Both the position numbers and the translations under genes were made by a program. This document shows, piece after piece, positions 56,008 to 63,194 of a stretch of 64,000 nucleotides of DNA. This DNA comes from a virus (Duplodnaviria > Caudoviricetes). The notes below the pieces were generated by a model that was given only the letters and a program-made list of their open reading frames with translations, did no database searches and had not been told where the DNA came from. Every line of letters starts with the position of its first letter. Position 1 is the first letter of the stretch. The stretch lies in IMG/VR virus record IMGVR_UViG_3300010340_001122; one strand, given 5' to 3'.

Positions 56008-56038
56008 TTTGACATTATAGAAAACTTTTGTATATTTG
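56008..56038 (+). promoter_or_regulatory. Bacteroidota sigma-A-type promoter of tRNA operon 1
   Basis: TTTG (56008)-N19-TATATTTG (56031); second TAATATATA motif at 56071. Confidence 0.75.
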
Positions 56039-56086
56039 TAATGTAAAAGAAACAAGAGAGAAACAATTTTTAATATATAAGAAATC

Positions 56087-56194
56087 ATGACAACAGTTCG
56101 TACACATAAATCTTTTAGTAAATCGTTTAAATGGCATTTTAAAAGCCATCGATTCGGTACTAAGAACGAACTGCCAAAAAATGAGATAGTGTAA
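56087..56194 (+). CDS. attenuator leader peptide 1 (MTTVRTHKSFSKSFKWHFKSHRFGTKNELPKNEIV)
   Basis: 35-aa ORF between promoter and terminator; H/K/F/W cluster. Confidence 0.75.
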   Translation: MTTVRTHKSFSKSFKWHFKSHRFGTKNELPKNEIV

Positions 56195-56221
56195 TCTCGT
56201 AATTTTTGATAGTGAAATTCC

Positions 56222-56259
56222 AAAAACCCGAATACAAAAGATTCGGGTTTTTTGTTTTT
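56222..56259 (+). terminator. attenuator terminator 1
   Basis: AAAAACCCGAAT-loop-ATTCGGGTTTTTT directly upstream of first tRNA. Confidence 0.85.
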
Positions 56260-56263
56260 ATAT

Positions 56264-56356
56264 GGTGTCAGTAGCCGGTAATTGGTAACCGACCAGATTG
56301 TGGCTCTGGAATGACTTCAAAAAAGTCTTTTGCGGGTTCGAGTCCCGTCTGACACC
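56264..56356 (+). tRNA. tRNA-His(GTG), long variable arm
   Basis: G-1:C73, CCAGA-TTGTGGC-TCTGG, GACTT/AAGTC extra arm. Confidence 0.85.
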
Positions 56357-56361
56357 CAAAT

Positions 56362-56434
56362 GGAGCCTAAGCTAACTTGGTAGAAGCACTGGTCTGAAAA
56401 ACCAGAGGACCCGGATCGTAACCGGGAGGTTCCA
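56362..56434 (+). tRNA. tRNA-Phe(GAA)
   Basis: CTGGT-CTGAAAA-ACCAG; T-loop ATCGTAA. Confidence 0.85.
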
Positions 56435-56441
56435 CAAAAAT

Positions 56442-56515
56442 GGTGATTGTAGCTCAATCGGTAGAGCGCAGGTTTGTGGCACCTGAGGCAGCGGGATCGA
56501 AACCCGTCATTCACC
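56442..56515 (+). tRNA. tRNA-His(GTG)
   Basis: G-1:C73, CAGGT-TTGTGGC-ACCTG. Confidence 0.9.
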
Positions 56516-56524
56516 CAAAAAAAT

Positions 56525-56614
56525 GTACTCGCTCATAGGCGTGACCAGGCGGCTCCAACCCGCTCTCCGAAAGGGGTCTAACGATTGGTGAGGGTTCGAA
56601 TCCCTACGGGTATG
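56525..56614 (+). tRNA. tRNA-Trp(CCA), atypical (reduced D arm, long variable region)
   Basis: GGCGG-CTCCAAC-CCGCT; GGGTTCGAATCCC; G73. Confidence 0.65.
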
Positions 56615-56619
56615 CAAAA

Positions 56620-56692
56620 GGTTTCATAGCTCAGTTGGTAGAGCGTCGCCCTGAAGAGGCGAGCGTCGGCGGTTCAAGTCCGTCTGAAACCA
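56620..56692 (+). tRNA. tRNA-Phe(GAA)
   Basis: Canonical cloverleaf, TCGCC-CTGAAGA-GGCGA. Confidence 0.92.
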
Positions 56693-56698
56693 CAAACT

Positions 56699-56769
56699 AC
56701 GGGTGACAGGCTTGGTGTCGGTGGGATCTCCAAAATCTTCACGAGCTACTTCGATTGTAGCCACCCGTG
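56699..56769 (+). tRNA. tRNA-Trp(CCA), atypical D arm
   Basis: ACGGGTG/CACCCGT acceptor, GGGAT-CTCCAAA-ATCTT. Confidence 0.7.
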
Positions 56770-56776
56770 CTAAGTA

Positions 56777-56884
56777 CATAAAAATGGAATAAACAATGAT
56801 AATAGAATAGATAATTTAGAATTTTTATGTCCAAATTGTCATTCACAAACTGAAAATTACGCAGGTAAAAATAAATTAAATTAA
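56777..56884 (+). pseudogene. HNH endonuclease C-terminal remnant
   Basis: HKNGINNDNRIDNLEFLCPNCHSQT; no start codon. Confidence 0.8.
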
Positions 56885-56971
56885 AAAATGAGAACTATTA
56901 CAATAAAACGAAAATGTAAACGATAGGCAAATGTTCCACATATACGGACCATTTGCCAATAAAAAACAAAT

Positions 56972-57046
56972 GATTCCGTAGCAAAATGTGGCTTTGCTCC
57001 TGGCTTTTAACCAGGCTAAAAGTGAGTTCGACTCTCACCGGGATCA
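56972..57046 (+). tRNA. tRNA-Lys(TTT)
   Basis: CCTGG-CTTTTAA-CCAGG. Confidence 0.85.
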
Positions 57047-57091
57047 CAAAAATGTGTTCGTCGAGATTTAAATTCTCCAGACACATAATAT

Positions 57092-57175
57092 CCGTCCGTG
57101 AGTGAGCGACCGAAACTATCAGACTTTTAATCTGACTCCTAAAGGACAACACTGGTTTGAATCCAGTCGGACGGA
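57092..57175 (+). tRNA. tRNA-Lys(TTT), long variable arm
   Basis: TCAGA-CTTTTAA-TCTGA; TCC-TAAA-GGA arm. Confidence 0.8.
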
Positions 57176-57181
57176 CAAAAT

Positions 57182-57267
57182 AACTCAGTTCCCGTAGCTG
57201 GCCGAACGGCTCCGACTCTTAATCGGATTGCGAAAGCACAACGAGGGTTCAAATCCCTCCTGAGTTA
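57182..57267 (+). tRNA. tRNA-Lys(CTT), long variable arm
   Basis: TCCGA-CTCTTAA-TCGGA; TGC-GAAA-GCA arm. Confidence 0.82.
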
Positions 57268-57328
57268 CAAAAATCCGAACTCACGTTTAACTTCTTAAAG
57301 GAAGATACTTATTTTTTATATATAATAT

Positions 57329-58222
57329 ATGAAAATAAATGATATAAACTGGGAAGAGGTTCAACTATTCTACAATAATGATAAAAACTGGAGTGATGTA
57401 TGTAAATATTTTAATATCAGTCAAAATTTAATTATAAGTGCAAAAAAACTAGGACTATTTATTAGTAGAAGTAAATCAGAATCGATTTCTATTTCACTTA
57501 GAAAAACTCCGAGGAAGCATTCAGAAGAAACAAAGAAAAAAATAAGTGAGATAAGAAAAAAGTATTTACAAGAGAATCCAGATAAAGTTCCATATAAATT
57601 GAATCATAGTAGTAAAGAATCATATCCTGAGAAATACTTTACTGAAGTATTTGGAAATGAAGGAATAGAAGTTGTTAAATCTTTTAATATCGGAATTTAT
57701 GAACTAGATTTTTGCATATTAGATAAAAAAATTGATATAGAAATCGATGGTAGTCAACATTATTATGATGAAAAAATAGTTGAGAGTGATAAACGTAGAA
57801 ATAAATTTCTTGAAGATAATGGATGGGATATCATAAGAATAAACTGGTCTGATTATCAAAAACTTGGTTTTGAATATAAAAAAGAATACATTTCAAATTT
57901 AAAAAGTTATATAAATGATTTAATAGACACTAAACCATTTTTTGAGGTTCCTATTAAAGAAAAAAAAATTAAAGAAAAAAAACAAAGAGTTGAGAATAAA
58001 AATAAAAAAATAAAAAAAGAATATTTATGTAAATATTGTGAAAGTAAATGTACTTGGTCTAAAGATAGGTGTGAACCTTGCTACAGAAAACAAAGTAGAA
58101 AAGTAGAAAGACCATCTTTAGAGCAATTGAAAATAGACATAGAAAATTTAGGATATTTAGGAACTGGTAGAAAATATGGAGTAAGTGATAATAGTATAAG
58201 AAAATGGATAAAATCCATTTAA
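57329..58222 (+). CDS. DUF559/Vsr-like putative homing endonuclease
   Basis: HSEETKKKIS (NUMOD3-like), DF...IEIDGSQH, D..R...L...GW...RI.W, C-terminal YGVSDNSIRKW HTH. Confidence 0.82.
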   Translation: MKINDINWEEVQLFYNNDKNWSDVCKYFNISQNLIISAKKLGLFISRSKSESISISLRKTPRKHSEETKKKISEIRKKYLQENPDKVPYKLNHSSKESYPEKYFTEVFGNEGIEVVKSFNIGIYELDFCILDKKIDIEIDGSQHYYDEKIVESDKRRNKFLEDNGWDIIRINWSDYQKLGFEYKKEYISNLKSYINDLIDTKPFFEVPIKEKKIKEKKQRVENKNKKIKKEYLCKYCESKCTWSKDRCEPCYRKQSRKVERPSLEQLKIDIENLGYLGTGRKYGVSDNSIRKWIKSI

Positions 58223-58231
58223 AATAAATTT

Positions 58232-58363
58232 GGGGAGGTAGCTCAGTGGTAGAGTATAGCTACACTCTTTTGAAACTTTACCTCTGAAAAGAGTGTTGAT
58301 CGAAAGAGTTACTTCGTATATTTTGAACATATAAGGTCGTTGGTTCGAATCCAACCCTCCCCA
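58232..58363 (+). ncRNA. tRNA-framed RNA with about 60-nt insertion between D arm and anticodon arm
   Basis: GGGGAGG/CCTCCCC, canonical D and T arms, TATAT-TTTGAAC-ATATA arm. Confidence 0.7.
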
Positions 58364-59278: not shown

Positions 59279-59587
59279 AAAAATATTAGTAAAGAAAACT
59301 GGTGATATTTTAACCACTTCAAATAATGAACTTCAAATTAAGATTATGAATTTTGAATTTGATTTAGAATATAACATCAAAGATAAGATTGAAAATAAGA
59401 TCACGTTCACACATCCAGGCGATTCTAAAACAAATCGAGAAGGTAAATATTATCTGATGCGGATTTTAAGACTCATTTTCAGTCAGTTAAAAAATAGTTG
59501 AAAATAAATTTGGTTTGTATTGTTTTTGTATGTACATTTGCATTACAATAATTAAGTAATCAATCACTTTCGATGCAGCCAGCCGGA

Positions 59588-59704
59588 ATTGCCGAAGGTG
59601 GGGATTACTTGCACAACAGCCCATCAGAAGCACAAAAGTTCAATGTAGTGCAATTGCTTATTAGTGGAACGTCAGCCCCCACTTTTGGCAATACCTTGTT
59701 AGCG
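59588..59704 (-). repeat. attC-like palindrome (one end truncated)
   Basis: ATTGCCGAAGGTGGGG / CCCCACTTTTGGCAAT; GTTAGCG end. Confidence 0.65.
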
Positions 59705-59743
59705 GTATGTGCTTATTGTCAAACGTAAATTAAAATTAATAAA

Positions 59744-60028
59744 ATGAAACAAGCAATTTGGAAATTTGAAACACCATTTGAAGATAAGTTTTCACTTCAA
59801 ATGCCAAAAGGTTCTGAAATACTTTCAGTTCAGCAAGACCAAAAAACTATGATACCTTGTATATGGGCTTTGGTTTATCCAGAAAATGAAAAAGAGGAAA
59901 GGTTTTTTGAACTTTTCGGAACTGGACATCCTATTCACAATGATATGGGAATTGAAAGAAAGTATGTCGGAACTTATCAATATCAACGTGGTGAATTTGT
60001 CGGACACATTTTTGAACGGGTGTCGTAG
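59744..60028 (+). CDS. cassette-borne conserved phage-type hypothetical protein
   Basis: IWKF...MPKG.EILSVQ...IWALV...GTGH...YVGT. Confidence 0.8.
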   Translation: MKQAIWKFETPFEDKFSLQMPKGSEILSVQQDQKTMIPCIWALVYPENEKEERFFELFGTGHPIHNDMGIERKYVGTYQYQRGEFVGHIFERVS

Positions 60029-60034
60029 CATTAC

Positions 60035-60166
60035 CGCTAACGTTAAAGCATTGGCGAATAAGGGGCATTTGAAAGACAAATGTTCAGCCTTTGCAGAATG
60101 TTTCATAGTAGCACAAAAGTTGAATTAACATCGTCAAGCCCCTTTTTTGCCAATGCAATGTTAGTG
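60035..60166 (-). repeat. attC-like palindrome
   Basis: CGCTAAC..GCATTGGC..AAGGGGC / GCCCCTT..GCCAATGC..GTTAGTG. Confidence 0.8.
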
Positions 60167-60250
60167 GATAGGTGAAAATGGTAATATTTATCATGAATCT
60201 GAGGTAATTGTTGGACTGGATGAAATTAGAGAATATAAAATTGAAAATAA

Positions 60251-60282
60251 TTTGGAAATTTAAAAACAAAGAAGTATATTTG
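60251..60282 (+). promoter_or_regulatory. Bacteroidota sigma-A-type promoter of tRNA operon 2
   Basis: TTTG-N20-TATATTTG, followed directly by TAATATATA. Confidence 0.75.
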
Positions 60283-60297
60283 TAATATATAATAAAT

Positions 60298-60366
60298 ATG
60301 AAAGTCATGAACACTACATCATCATCGTCGTCAAGTCGTAGTTCGAAGATGGTAATGTATTGCTAA
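60298..60366 (+). CDS. attenuator leader peptide 2 (MKVMNTTSSSSSSRSSKMVMYC)
   Basis: 22 aa with 8 Ser and 1 Arg, between promoter and terminator. Confidence 0.8.
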   Translation: MKVMNTTSSSSSSRSSKMVMYC

Positions 60367-60381
60367 AAATAAAAATACACG

Positions 60382-60421
60382 AAATCCTCGAATTTGAAAA
60401 AGTTCGAGGATTTTTTATTTT
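60382..60421 (+). terminator. attenuator terminator 2
   Basis: AAATCCTCGAATTT-GAAA-AAGTTCGAGGATTTTTT directly upstream of tRNA. Confidence 0.85.
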
Positions 60422-60423
60422 AT

Positions 60424-60495
60424 AACCGTATAGTTTAATGGATAGAATTACCGGTTTCGACCCGGTAGGTGAGGGTTCGAGTCCTTCTATGGTTA
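60424..60495 (+). tRNA. tRNA-Arg(TCG)
   Basis: ACCGG-TTTCGAC-CCGGT; A20 identity element. Confidence 0.85.
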
Positions 60496-60552
60496 CTAAC
60501 CTCTGTAAATAGGAGTTCGGTTTTTTAATATATAAACTAAAAATCGAATTTT

Positions 60553-61401
60553 ATGACAGATGTAAATAAAAGAAGGTCTGAGAAAATGAAACAAAATTTC
60601 AAAGATGGTAAAATTAAAGGATGGGTAATAAATAATAGTAAAGATAGAAGAAGCTATCCAGAAAGTTTTTTCATAAAAGTTTTTAAAAATAATAATTTGT
60701 ATGAAAAATACAATATAGAGGAAAAATTTTCTTATGGTAAATACTTTATAGATTTTCTTTTTGTTGAATTAAAACTAGTTTTAGAGATCGATGGTGAACA
60801 ACACTTTGCAACAGAAGAAGCTATTAAACATGATATGGAAAGAGATAACTTTTTCTTAAAAGAGGGATTTAAAATATACAGAGTAAGATGGAAAGATGTT
60901 TGTAATAATGCTAAAAAAGAAATTGATGAACTTTTAAATTTTCTAAATAATATAGAGTCTAATTTAATTAGAAAATATATCTTAGATGATTCAGTTTATC
61001 AGAAAAAGAAAAAGAAATACATCCAAAGAAAAAAAAAGAAAAAATGCTCAGATTGTGATAAATTTATTTTAATGAAAAGTAATAAATGTAGAAGTTGTTA
61101 TCTAAATAGTTTAGAAAAAAAATTGACCAAACGAATAGGTAAAAATAAATGTGTGATGTGTGATGAAACTATACATGGTGAAAAATTTTGTAAAAAATGT
61201 TATGATATAAATCAGAGAAAAATTGAAAGACCGGATATTAATGAGTTAATTGAAAAAGTAAAAATTCTTGGATATTCTAAGGTTGGTAAAGAATATGGTG
61301 TTAGTGACAATACGATAAGAAAATGGATAAAAAATCGGCAGATGTGGGTTCGAATCCCACCGCGTGAGATAGCTACACGTAGTATCATAATAGGAGAATG
61401 A
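60553..61401 (+). CDS. DUF559/Vsr-like putative homing endonuclease (paralog of 57329..58222)
   Basis: SYPE..F, IDF...LEIDGEQH, YGVSDNTIRKW; C-terminus runs into a tRNA remnant. Confidence 0.82.
   Translation: MTDVNKRRSEKMKQNFKDGKIKGWVINNSKDRRSYPESFFIKVFKNNNLYEKYNIEEKFSYGKYFIDFLFVELKLVLEIDGEQHFATEEAIKHDMERDNFFLKEGFKIYRVRWKDVCNNAKKEIDELLNFLNNIESNLIRKYILDDSVYQKKKKKYIQRKKKKKCSDCDKFILMKSNKCRSCYLNSLEKKLTKRIGKNKCVMCDETIHGEKFCKKCYDINQRKIERPDINELIEKVKILGYSKVGKEYGVSDNTIRKWIKNRQMWVRIPPREIATRSIIIGE
61335..61366 (+). pseudogene. 3' half tRNA remnant
   Basis: TCGGC-AGAT-GTGGG-TTCGAAT-CCCAC without a 5' half. Confidence 0.55.
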
Positions 61402-61413
61402 CACCGAAAATAT

Positions 61414-61500
61414 GGAGAGTTGGTAGAGTCTGGCTTATTGCACCGGTCTTGAAAACCGGAGGTCCTTCGGGATCCCAGGGTTCGAATCCCTGACTCTCCT
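61414..61500 (+). tRNA. tRNA-Ser(TGA)
   Basis: CCGGT-CTTGAAA-ACCGG, long variable arm. Confidence 0.92.
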
Positions 61501-61505
61501 CAAAT

Positions 61506-61586
61506 GGAAGTACCCAGTGGACTGAGGTTAGGCGTCTTGAAAACGTTGAAGTGTCGCGAGGCATGTGCGAGTTCACTGCTCTCCGC
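61506..61586 (+). tRNA. tRNA-Ser(TGA)-like, degenerate T arm (possible pseudogene)
   Basis: GGCGT-CTTGAAA-ACGTT, variable arm; no TTCGA loop. Confidence 0.5.
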
Positions 61587-61591
61587 AAAAT

Positions 61592-61824
61592 ATTCAGATA
61601 GTTTAAATCGGAAAAACAATCCTAAAACGAAGGGATTCTCTTTTGAGGGATTTTAACTTGCTACTGGAGGCTGTCAAAGATATGGTTGTGTATTCAACTG
61701 ACATAAGACCAAAGGGTGTGAGGTTCTGACCACACGGTTGCGGATGCACTGAGATACACTCAGGAAGCGAGTTCTCCAAGGTCAATTTATGAAATCTATG
61801 TGGGTTCGATCCCCATTCTGAATG
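61592..61824 (+). ncRNA. 233-nt tRNA-framed RNA with large structured insertion
   Basis: ATTCAGA/TCTGAAT acceptor, D arm, T arm GTGGG-TTCGATC-CCCAT, several internal stems. Confidence 0.7.
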
Positions 61825-61829
61825 CAAAT

Positions 61830-61902
61830 GGTTCCATCGTCCAATTGGATAGGACGTATCTTTGCGAAAGATATAATGTGAGTTCGAATCTCACTGGGAC
61901 TA
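61830..61902 (+). tRNA. tRNA-Arg(GCG)
   Basis: TATCT-TTGCGAA-AGATA; A20. Confidence 0.87.
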
Positions 61903-61909
61903 CAATCTT

Positions 61910-61999
61910 AGAGGAGTCATCCGAAATTGGTATCGGTCCGGCCTGGAAAGTCGGTCATCGGGATAACCTGATGTGTGGGTTCGAGTCCCATTTCCTCTG
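61910..61999 (+). tRNA. tRNA-Ser(GGA)
   Basis: CCGGC-CTGGAAA-GTCGG, long variable arm, G73. Confidence 0.87.
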
Positions 62000-62311
62000 C
62001 TAAATATCTATATTATAGAGTTTATTATACGCATTTTCTAATTTATCAATTTCCTTCTCTATTTTTTCCAATAATTCATTTTTAGTCATAGTCATTTTAA
62101 CTATTTCTGTATGATACCAATCACCTGATGGTCTTGAAGAATATTTAAAAATTAAATTATCATAAATAAAATAATCATCATAAATATAATATTCAGAAGC
62201 TTCATCAAAAAAATCATCACCTACAGATACACTTCCTGATTCTATCGCTCTTTTAAAAATTTTACCTATTTCATCATTTAATTTACTTTCAAATTTTGAT
62301 AAATATTTCAT
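62000..62311 (-). CDS. hypothetical protein with MKYLSKFE tag
   Basis: Start reassigned to the tag ATG; TATATA upstream. Confidence 0.65.
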   Translation of the reverse strand: MKYLSKFESKLNDEIGKIFKRAIESGSVSVGDDFFDEASEYYIYDDYFIYDNLIFKYSSRPSGDWYHTEIVKMTMTKNELLEKIEKEIDKLENAYNKLYNIDI

Positions 62312-63002: not shown

Positions 63003-63033
63003 TTTGGAAGTTTTAAAACTTTTTGTATATTTG
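63003..63033 (+). promoter_or_regulatory. Bacteroidota sigma-A-type promoter of attenuated unit 3
   Basis: TTTG-N19-TATATTTG. Confidence 0.75.
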
Positions 63034-63067
63034 TAATATAAATAAATAATAAATAAAGACACATAAA

Positions 63068-63103
63068 ATGAAAACAATGTACTACATATTCAGAAATGAT
63101 TGA
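63068..63103 (+). CDS. attenuator leader peptide 3 (MKTMYYIFRND)
   Basis: 11-aa ORF between promoter and tandem terminators. Confidence 0.6.
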   Translation: MKTMYYIFRND

Positions 63104-63132
63104 TCAAGGTCAGTAGTGCTATAACTATATCT

Positions 63133-63194
63133 ACCCAGTCAATCAAAAATTGACTGGGTTTTTTTTACCCAGTTATTCCGAACTGGGTTTTTTT
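63133..63194 (+). terminator. tandem attenuator terminators
   Basis: ACCCAGTCAAT/ATTGACTGGGT + T-run, then ACCCAGTT/AACTGGGT + T-run. Confidence 0.85.

Follow-up and report, generated by a model that had tools for sequence, protein, structure and literature searches.

A candidate ribosome-mediated attenuator preceding a Ser/Arg tRNA block in an uncultured Bacteroidota-type megaphage

Introduction

The E. coli pheM-pheST attenuator governs a synthetase encoded on the chromosome, responds to a single amino acid and is controlled via the level of charged tRNA. The T-box riboswitches of the Firmicutes also switch between a terminator and an antiterminator; they bind uncharged tRNA directly and need no leader ORF. 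To our knowledge, no classical Ser leader has been described. The mechanism of pheL is the textbook attenuation scheme that the phage unit described here would follow (PMC3082878), and leader attenuators have been predicted 5' of amino-acid operons in Flavobacterium (PMC9723704). In E. coli, the chromosomal TopAI-YjhQ toxin-antitoxin transcript is under the control of a uORF that senses ribosome-targeting antibiotics (PMC12121999).

The presence of tRNA genes in phages has been a puzzle for 50 years (PMC10264068). It is established that host defences cut tRNAs and that phage tRNAs counter them (PMC11464382, PMC13096335, PMC10264068): the tRNA-Lys of T5 acts against PARIS (PMC11464382), the tRNA-Tyr of T6 is amplified by SegB and acts against Septu (PMC13096335), and some phage tRNAs have nuclease-resistant anticodon loops (PMC10264068). 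A literature search that covered few subscription journals returned no published attenuator for tRNA genes. Here, we describe a short, Ser-rich leader in front of a block of Ser and Arg tRNA genes in a megaphage. The present analysis contributes a contrast between two alleles, a positional test, and divergent orthologues from complete genomes in GenBank.

Results

The window (the whole stretch of DNA analysed, 64,000 nt) has a GC content of 29% and phage-like gene content, and is DNA of an uncultured, Bacteroidota-type megaphage. A motif scan found TA[TC]ATTTG closely 5' of many gene starts; this motif (also TAnnTTTG) is the -7 box of Bacteroidota sigma-A, which in Flavobacterium is located at -12 to -5 (PMC9723704). 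The best matches of the HU protein of the window were in LR745206.1 and LR756502.1 (635-kb and 642-kb records). Genomes in the 635-642 kb class have been placed in the Mahaphage clade, with hosts among the Bacteroidetes, by a study whose main text mentions neither leaders nor attenuation (PMC7162821), and from which the two records appear to stem. Several metagenome assemblies contain DNA that is identical, or nearly so, to the window. A DUF7352-gene cassette is present at nt 59500-60170 and absent from the close relative L038.

The features of the locus are collected in Table 1. All of those described in the earlier note are present where it had placed them, including the mixed leader codons (8-16) TCA TCA TCG TCG TCA AGT CGT AGT TCG, a mixture that counts against a microsatellite origin. 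The promoter, the DUF559 nuclease gene, the 240-nt element and the deletion in this copy had gone unmentioned there. The proposed 1:2 stem is paired at 14 of 16 positions, and segment 2 is identical to the 3' terminator arm at 10 of 11 positions, as had been reported, and pairs with the 5' arm. As in a classical attenuator, the short leader ORF lies directly after the promoter and is enriched in specific codons, and the 1:2, 2:3 and 3:4 helices are mutually exclusive and end in an intrinsic terminator. The antiterminator (2:3) has a folding energy of about -13 kcal/mol, including an inner stem (nt 60356-60361 with 60374-60379), and the leader region folds more stably than shuffled sequences (z = -5.2). 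Transcription would start near nt 60287. The leader is the sole short ORF with 8 Ser in 9 codons in the 64-kb window, and such an ORF arose in 0 of 100 Markov simulations. Among the matches listed in a chance control on viral contigs, 36 short ORFs with a Ser run lay 3' of the TATATTTG motif; a terminator accompanied one of the 36, and tRNAs were absent from all of them.

Table 1. Features of the Ser/Arg leader unit, its tRNA block and a further leader unit in the window.
Feature	Position (nt)	Strand	Details
Sigma-A-type promoter, Bacteroidota	60251-60282	+	TTTG (-33) 60251-60254; TAnnTTTG (-7) 60275-60282; motif scan
Leader ORF, 22 codons	60298-60366	+	ATG 60298; TAA 60366; Ser6-Arg-Ser2 run 60319-60345
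Segment 1	60315-60330	+	1:2 helix (pause/protector) with 60344-60359, about -12.4 kcal/mol
Segment 2	60340-60359	+	2:3 pairing of 60340-60350 with 60384-60394 (5' arm of the terminator); contains the junction of the 11-nt deletion
Intrinsic terminator 3:4 and U tract	60381-60423	+	Arms 60384-60394 and 60401-60411; hairpin 60381-60414, -18.4 kcal/mol
tRNA-Arg(TCG)	60424-60496	+	ARAGORN, Rfam
DUF559/REase-fold nuclease, zinc-ribbon tail	60553-61401	+	Pfam PF04480, E 9.5e-12
Permuted tRNA-like remnant	61331-61412	+	5' strand placed after the T arm and the 3' acceptor strand
tRNA-Ser(TGA)	61414-61501	+	ARAGORN, Rfam; reads UCA/UCG by wobble rules
Broken Ser gene	61506-61585	+	5' part of Ser(TGA) joined to 3' end of Ser(GCT); 6-nt microhomology 61568-61573
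240-nt element	61589-61828	+	tRNA-like acceptor, D and T arms with a long insert; inside the block
tRNA-Arg(GCG)	61830-61903	+	ARAGORN, Rfam
tRNA-Ser(GGA)	61913-62000	+	ARAGORN, Rfam
Third leader unit	63026-63190		11-codon leader (at 63069), two terminators; also L039 6394-9569, L590 21808, L594 5031

The response of the leader to a stalled ribosome was modelled by equilibrium folding, with the ribosome set at each codon and assumed to cover 10, 13 or 16 nt. With 13 nt covered, the predicted probability of the 2:3 helix was 0.83-0.86 for a stall on TCA TCA TCG TCG; it fell to 0.49 for Ser codon five, to 0.19 for the first AGT, to 0.03 for CGT and to 0 further on. In this model, the codons placed so that a stall frees segment 2, i.e. 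the sensing zone of the window allele, are TCA TCA TCG, with the fourth and fifth (TCG, TCA) borderline; AGT and CGT fall outside it because a ribosome stalled there already covers segment 2. The window allele is thus modelled as probably a sensor of Ser(UCA/UCG) and not of Arg. The earlier note had paired Ser(TGA) with the TCA/TCG run, which agrees with the codons in the sensing zone and with wobble rules; it had also paired Arg(GCG) with CGT, which fits the longer allele of relatives and not the window, where CGT is masked. Likewise, the sensing zone of the window allele offers no cognate codon for Arg(TCG), Arg(GCG), Ser(GGA) or the 240-nt element. Where Arg codons do fall in a sensing zone, they are CGT/CGC, whereas AGA makes up 76% of the Arg codons of the phage. 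When no ribosome is placed on the leader, 2:3 is preferred over 1:2 at equilibrium (P 0.78), so the role of 1:2 as a protector depends on the order of folding.

The leader is shared by nine related loci (L009, L038, L041, L042, L089, L128, L146, L159 and L163), in which the tRNAs called downstream are solely Ser and Arg, and it is also present in L059, which stops before a full tRNA. The promoter motif is kept in all relatives, and the gene upstream varies while the leader unit is constant. A version of the leader that is 11 nt longer occurs in ten loci (eight of them aligned with the window, alignment A1). According to the model, it has AGT and CGT/CGC within the sensing zone, and most of the complete blocks behind it include Ser(GCT), which L089 lacks. 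The window and the identical L039 and L040 lack these 11 nt, which are flanked by 6-nt direct repeats, and also lack Ser(GCT). By sequence comparison, the window copy is a derived deletion allele that has also lost Ser(GCT), and the description of it in the earlier note as the cleanest of three cases does not hold. Sensor and payload may have been narrowed together in this lineage, or this single case may reflect drift. Among the close relatives, one antiterminator pair is G-C in four rows and A-U in three, and all 78 of 78 cells are paired; this covariation may be one inherited event.

It is rather unlikely, in our estimate, that the window allele is a damaged drift variant of the same attenuator, in which the deletion weakens or scrambles regulation and the coincident loss of Ser(GCT) has no meaning. 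The deletion lies between slippage-prone direct repeats and is confined to one lineage, and Arg(GCG) is retained despite the masked CGT. Against this, the three helices are intact, the ORF still has 22 codons, and the 3-5 TCN codons in the sensing zone match an intact Ser(TGA); an assembly error is ruled out by the same sequence in at least two other assemblies.

The exact leader pattern had 0 matches in viral contigs, and the leader was absent from the isolated phages of the GenBank set. A pattern search of metagenomes returned mostly GC-rich chance matches, from which five true relatives were kept, and a forward scan for Ser runs behind the promoter motif, used as a background control, gave no new family among the matches listed. 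Divergent Ser/Arg leaders were found in LR756502.1 and LR745206.1 (80-82 identities, 35 mismatches and about 20 gaps). Both keep all of the helices, with a Ser/Arg tRNA block 3' of the leader that contains Arg(ACG), two Ser(TGA), Ser(GCT) and Ser(GGA), and in LR756502.1 also Arg(TCG). The sensing zone of each holds seven Ser/Arg codons, which differ from those of the window. Across five sequences, two antiterminator pairs vary between A-U, G-C and G-U, and terminator pairs change as well.

Phage loci with a promoter, short ORF, terminator and tRNA block were gathered by tRNA and terminator patterns, and 15 deduplicated families with complete blocks and 2-8 amino-acid types were used in a residue test. 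The fraction of leader residues matching the downstream tRNAs was 0.473, compared with 0.239 +/- 0.036 after permutation (maximum 0.393 in 20000 permutations), in a set whose families are partly dependent (two Asp/Glu/Val/Leu/Ala/Trp families are related) and in which the automatic leader rule probably chose the wrong ORF in a few retained families (e.g. L358, L261), lowering the statistic. An antiterminator segment was found at p <= 0.05 in 19 of 27 families, and the share of matched residues was 60% within the sensing zone as against 34% beyond it. In the two GenBank genomes, which are kin and out-of-sample for the pairing test, the true pairing of leaders and blocks ranked first of 720 and of 5040 permutations (6 and 7 units), with one large LR756502.1 block omitted for which the automatic rule found no leader. 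A scan of bacterial genomes for terminator plus tRNA, using one narrow pattern and hence a weak negative, gave 108 matches and no convincing leader-matched module.

Other leader units were observed. At nt 56031-57268 of the window, a promoter, a leader of 35 codons in which His, Phe, Lys and Trp abound, and a terminator are followed by His, Phe, Trp and Lys tRNAs; this unit has orthologues in LR756502.1 and LR745206.1. The simplest of such units are in the two GenBank megaphages, where poly-Gln leaders (L592 28054, L595 22758) lie directly 5' of three or four tRNA-Gln genes. In L015, L026, L027, L028, L266 and others there is one large all-purpose tRNA array, and the leader holds most amino acids once or twice; judged by their composition, such leaders look like a general checklist of translation.

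These data bear on a rival reading, in which a constitutive, leaky terminator sets a low, fixed level of tRNA and the Ser run is a by-product of RNA structure and not a sensor. The helices do generate TCG/CGA repeats by themselves, and Ser codons are common in those. We nevertheless regard this as very unlikely, as the match of codons to tRNAs extends across unrelated residues (Gln; Glu/Tyr; His/Phe/Trp/Lys; Asn/Val/Cys/Thr), matched codons are concentrated 5' of segment 2, and the divergent orthologues retain Ser/Arg with other codons. Still less probable is that the hairpin terminates an upstream transcript while the tRNAs have their own promoter and the leader arose by coincidence or as a microsatellite: promoter-like sites are numerous in AT-rich DNA, but the hairpin's terminator stops 9 nt 5' of tRNA-Arg(TCG), the motif scan found no further TAnnTTTG between nt 60283 and 61857, the unit stays constant while the upstream gene changes, the codons are mixed, and the chance controls were negative. 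The least credible reading, a captured His-operon leader in the +1 frame (His-His-His-Arg-Arg) that senses His or is now inactive, has in its favour one of two weak, sub-threshold Rfam matches (His_leader RF00514, nt 60316-60419, E 0.0085, 31.9 bits; the other being Phe_leader RF01859) and is largely refuted by a score below the gathering cut-off of 49 bits, by a stop at nt 60308 and no start codon 5' of the His codons in that frame, by the absence of tRNA-His or his genes downstream, and by orthologues in LR756502.1 and LR745206.1 that have no His run and keep the Ser/Arg frame.

The four tRNA genes Arg(TCG), Ser(TGA), Arg(GCG) and Ser(GGA) were found 3' of the leader by ARAGORN and Rfam, in agreement with the earlier note. 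The degenerate Ser(TGA) that it had listed also exists, but has no tRNA fold left: it is a fusion of a second Ser(TGA) with Ser(GCT), through which Ser(GCT) was lost from the window block. ARAGORN detects the parent genes in a comparison with L038/L146, and not the fused gene. An 849-nt DUF559 nuclease gene, probably a mobile endonuclease, is inserted between Arg(TCG) and the Ser tRNAs and is missing in L009, L146 and L159. The Ser tRNAs of the window allele lie about 1 kb 3' of the leader and are separated from it by the nuclease gene and, near nt 60497-60526, by a weak hairpin with a U run. DUF559 genes inside tRNA blocks (nt 57329-58222 and 60553-61401; L038 11262-12074) vary between strains and recall SegB beside the T-even tRNA arrays.

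The block includes two further tRNA-like elements. At least five distinct relatives share the permuted remnant at 92-100% conservation; to judge from its sequence, it is either left over from tandem copies or a tRNA mimic that lacks an anticodon. The 240-nt element matches no Rfam family; its copy in L162 (nt 1169-1407) is 97% identical and was called by ARAGORN as Leu(CAA) with an intron, so the element is possibly an intron-containing tRNA. A group I intron was considered, but there is no Rfam match, and L162 has U-A in place of the putative U-G splice pair. Elsewhere in the window (nt 58232-58363), a tRNA that carries about 55 nt of inserted sequence close to its anticodon arm, conserved in eight loci, has an unstable anticodon call (Phe/Ser). 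L009, L059, L146 and L159 carry, right 3' of the terminator, a tRNA-like gene that ARAGORN misses; its anticodon is UCG, its D arm is reduced and its variable arm is long. In the window, no more than the first bases of this gene are left, near nt 60498.

Discussion

The reading put forward in the earlier note, a ribosome-mediated transcription attenuator gating the phage Ser/Arg tRNA block, draws support from the anatomy, from its conservation in divergent orthologues, from compensatory pairs and from the class-level statistics, and we give it a probability of about 0.88 on sequence and modelling grounds. We infer that the leader is translated, that the helices switch and that the whole block is co-transcribed, and we likewise infer the trigger. 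A host-type RNA polymerase would start near the predicted site and a ribosome would translate the leader. Fast reading of the Ser codons would bring the ribosome over segment 2 to the stop codon, allowing the 3:4 terminator to form and ending transcription 5' of the first tRNA. If Ser-tRNA(UGA) were scarce (cleaved, depleted or uncharged), the ribosome would stall on TCA/TCG with segment 1 covered and segment 2 free, the 2:3 antiterminator would form, and the polymerase would proceed into the tRNA genes. These would restore decoding, giving a negative-feedback loop on tRNA supply. The downstream genes would relieve the sensed shortage as cognate tRNAs and not as enzymes, a relation also seen in the class statistics. 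The longer allele would sense AGT and CGT/CGC too, in front of a block with Ser(GCT), while the window allele would be narrowed to UCA/UCG.

Such an attenuator is unable to distinguish an uncharged tRNA from a missing one. Loss or damage of tRNA in infection is the trigger that we moderately favour, because more tRNA would remedy tRNA loss. Support for it comes from a sister leader before RNA ligases: the third leader unit (Table 1) lies in this phage group 5' of HNH, GIY-YIG and two PF09414 RNA ligase genes, and its counterpart in LR756502.1 and LR745206.1 precedes two ligases and a HisRS-like ORF. General demand or matching of the host pool is an unlikely trigger, and amino-acid starvation an even less likely one; serine starvation is probably not the natural signal because extra tRNA cannot make up for missing serine. 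In mycobacteriophages, Ser(TGA) and Ser(GGA) are avoided as nuclease targets (PMC10264068), and the presence of both in the window phage counts against a simple resistance story. Supply by dosage, or general demand, may be at work instead.

More broadly, and at somewhat less than even odds, Bacteroidota megaphages may keep translation under codon-by-codon surveillance, with codon-matched attenuators before each tRNA block and before the RNA-ligase (tRNA repair) operon, fired by tRNA destruction through host defences or infection, and with sensor and payload retuned together. If so, the window allele would be an example, having lost Ser(GCT) and the AGU position of the sensing zone together. 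As to why phages carry tRNA genes, a codon-matched switch suggests that the tRNAs are probably made on demand, when their own codons are decoded slowly, and the leader would name those that the phage expects to run short of. The two natural alleles offer a contrast between Ser(UCN) only and Ser(UCN, AGU) plus Arg(CGY).

The counter-defence phage arrays noted above resemble the present one, which would likewise replace host tRNAs lost in infection and which also has endonuclease genes within it; what is described for them is resistance or gene dosage, and no sensor is reported in the relevant passages of those papers. The uORF of TopAI-YjhQ is likewise a short ORF sensing ribosome stalling, while here tRNA genes would be controlled. 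Like a T-box, the phage unit would use a terminator/antiterminator switch to answer the state of a specific tRNA, but it has a leader ORF, and a T-box (stem I, specifier loop, T-box bulge) gave no Rfam match at the locus at gathering or E <= 5. If the tRNA is destroyed, a leader peptide should fire and a T-box should not. As in pheM-pheST, a component of the translation machinery lies behind the attenuator, here phage tRNA genes. With trpL, hisL, pheL, thrL, leuL and ilvL the unit shares a leader ORF with regulatory codons in segment 1, the 1:2/2:3/3:4 helices and an intrinsic terminator; it differs from these classical leaders in using Ser/Arg, in its location in a phage, in being one of several parallel units that span much of the code, and in its output, since tRNA genes and the DUF559 nuclease are found downstream instead of biosynthesis or synthetase genes. 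Read as an attenuator, the phage unit works like trpL, hisL and pheL, lies outside every Rfam leader family and has tRNA genes as its targets, which would extend attenuation from enzymes to tRNA genes and provide compact sensors for tRNA-specific damage.
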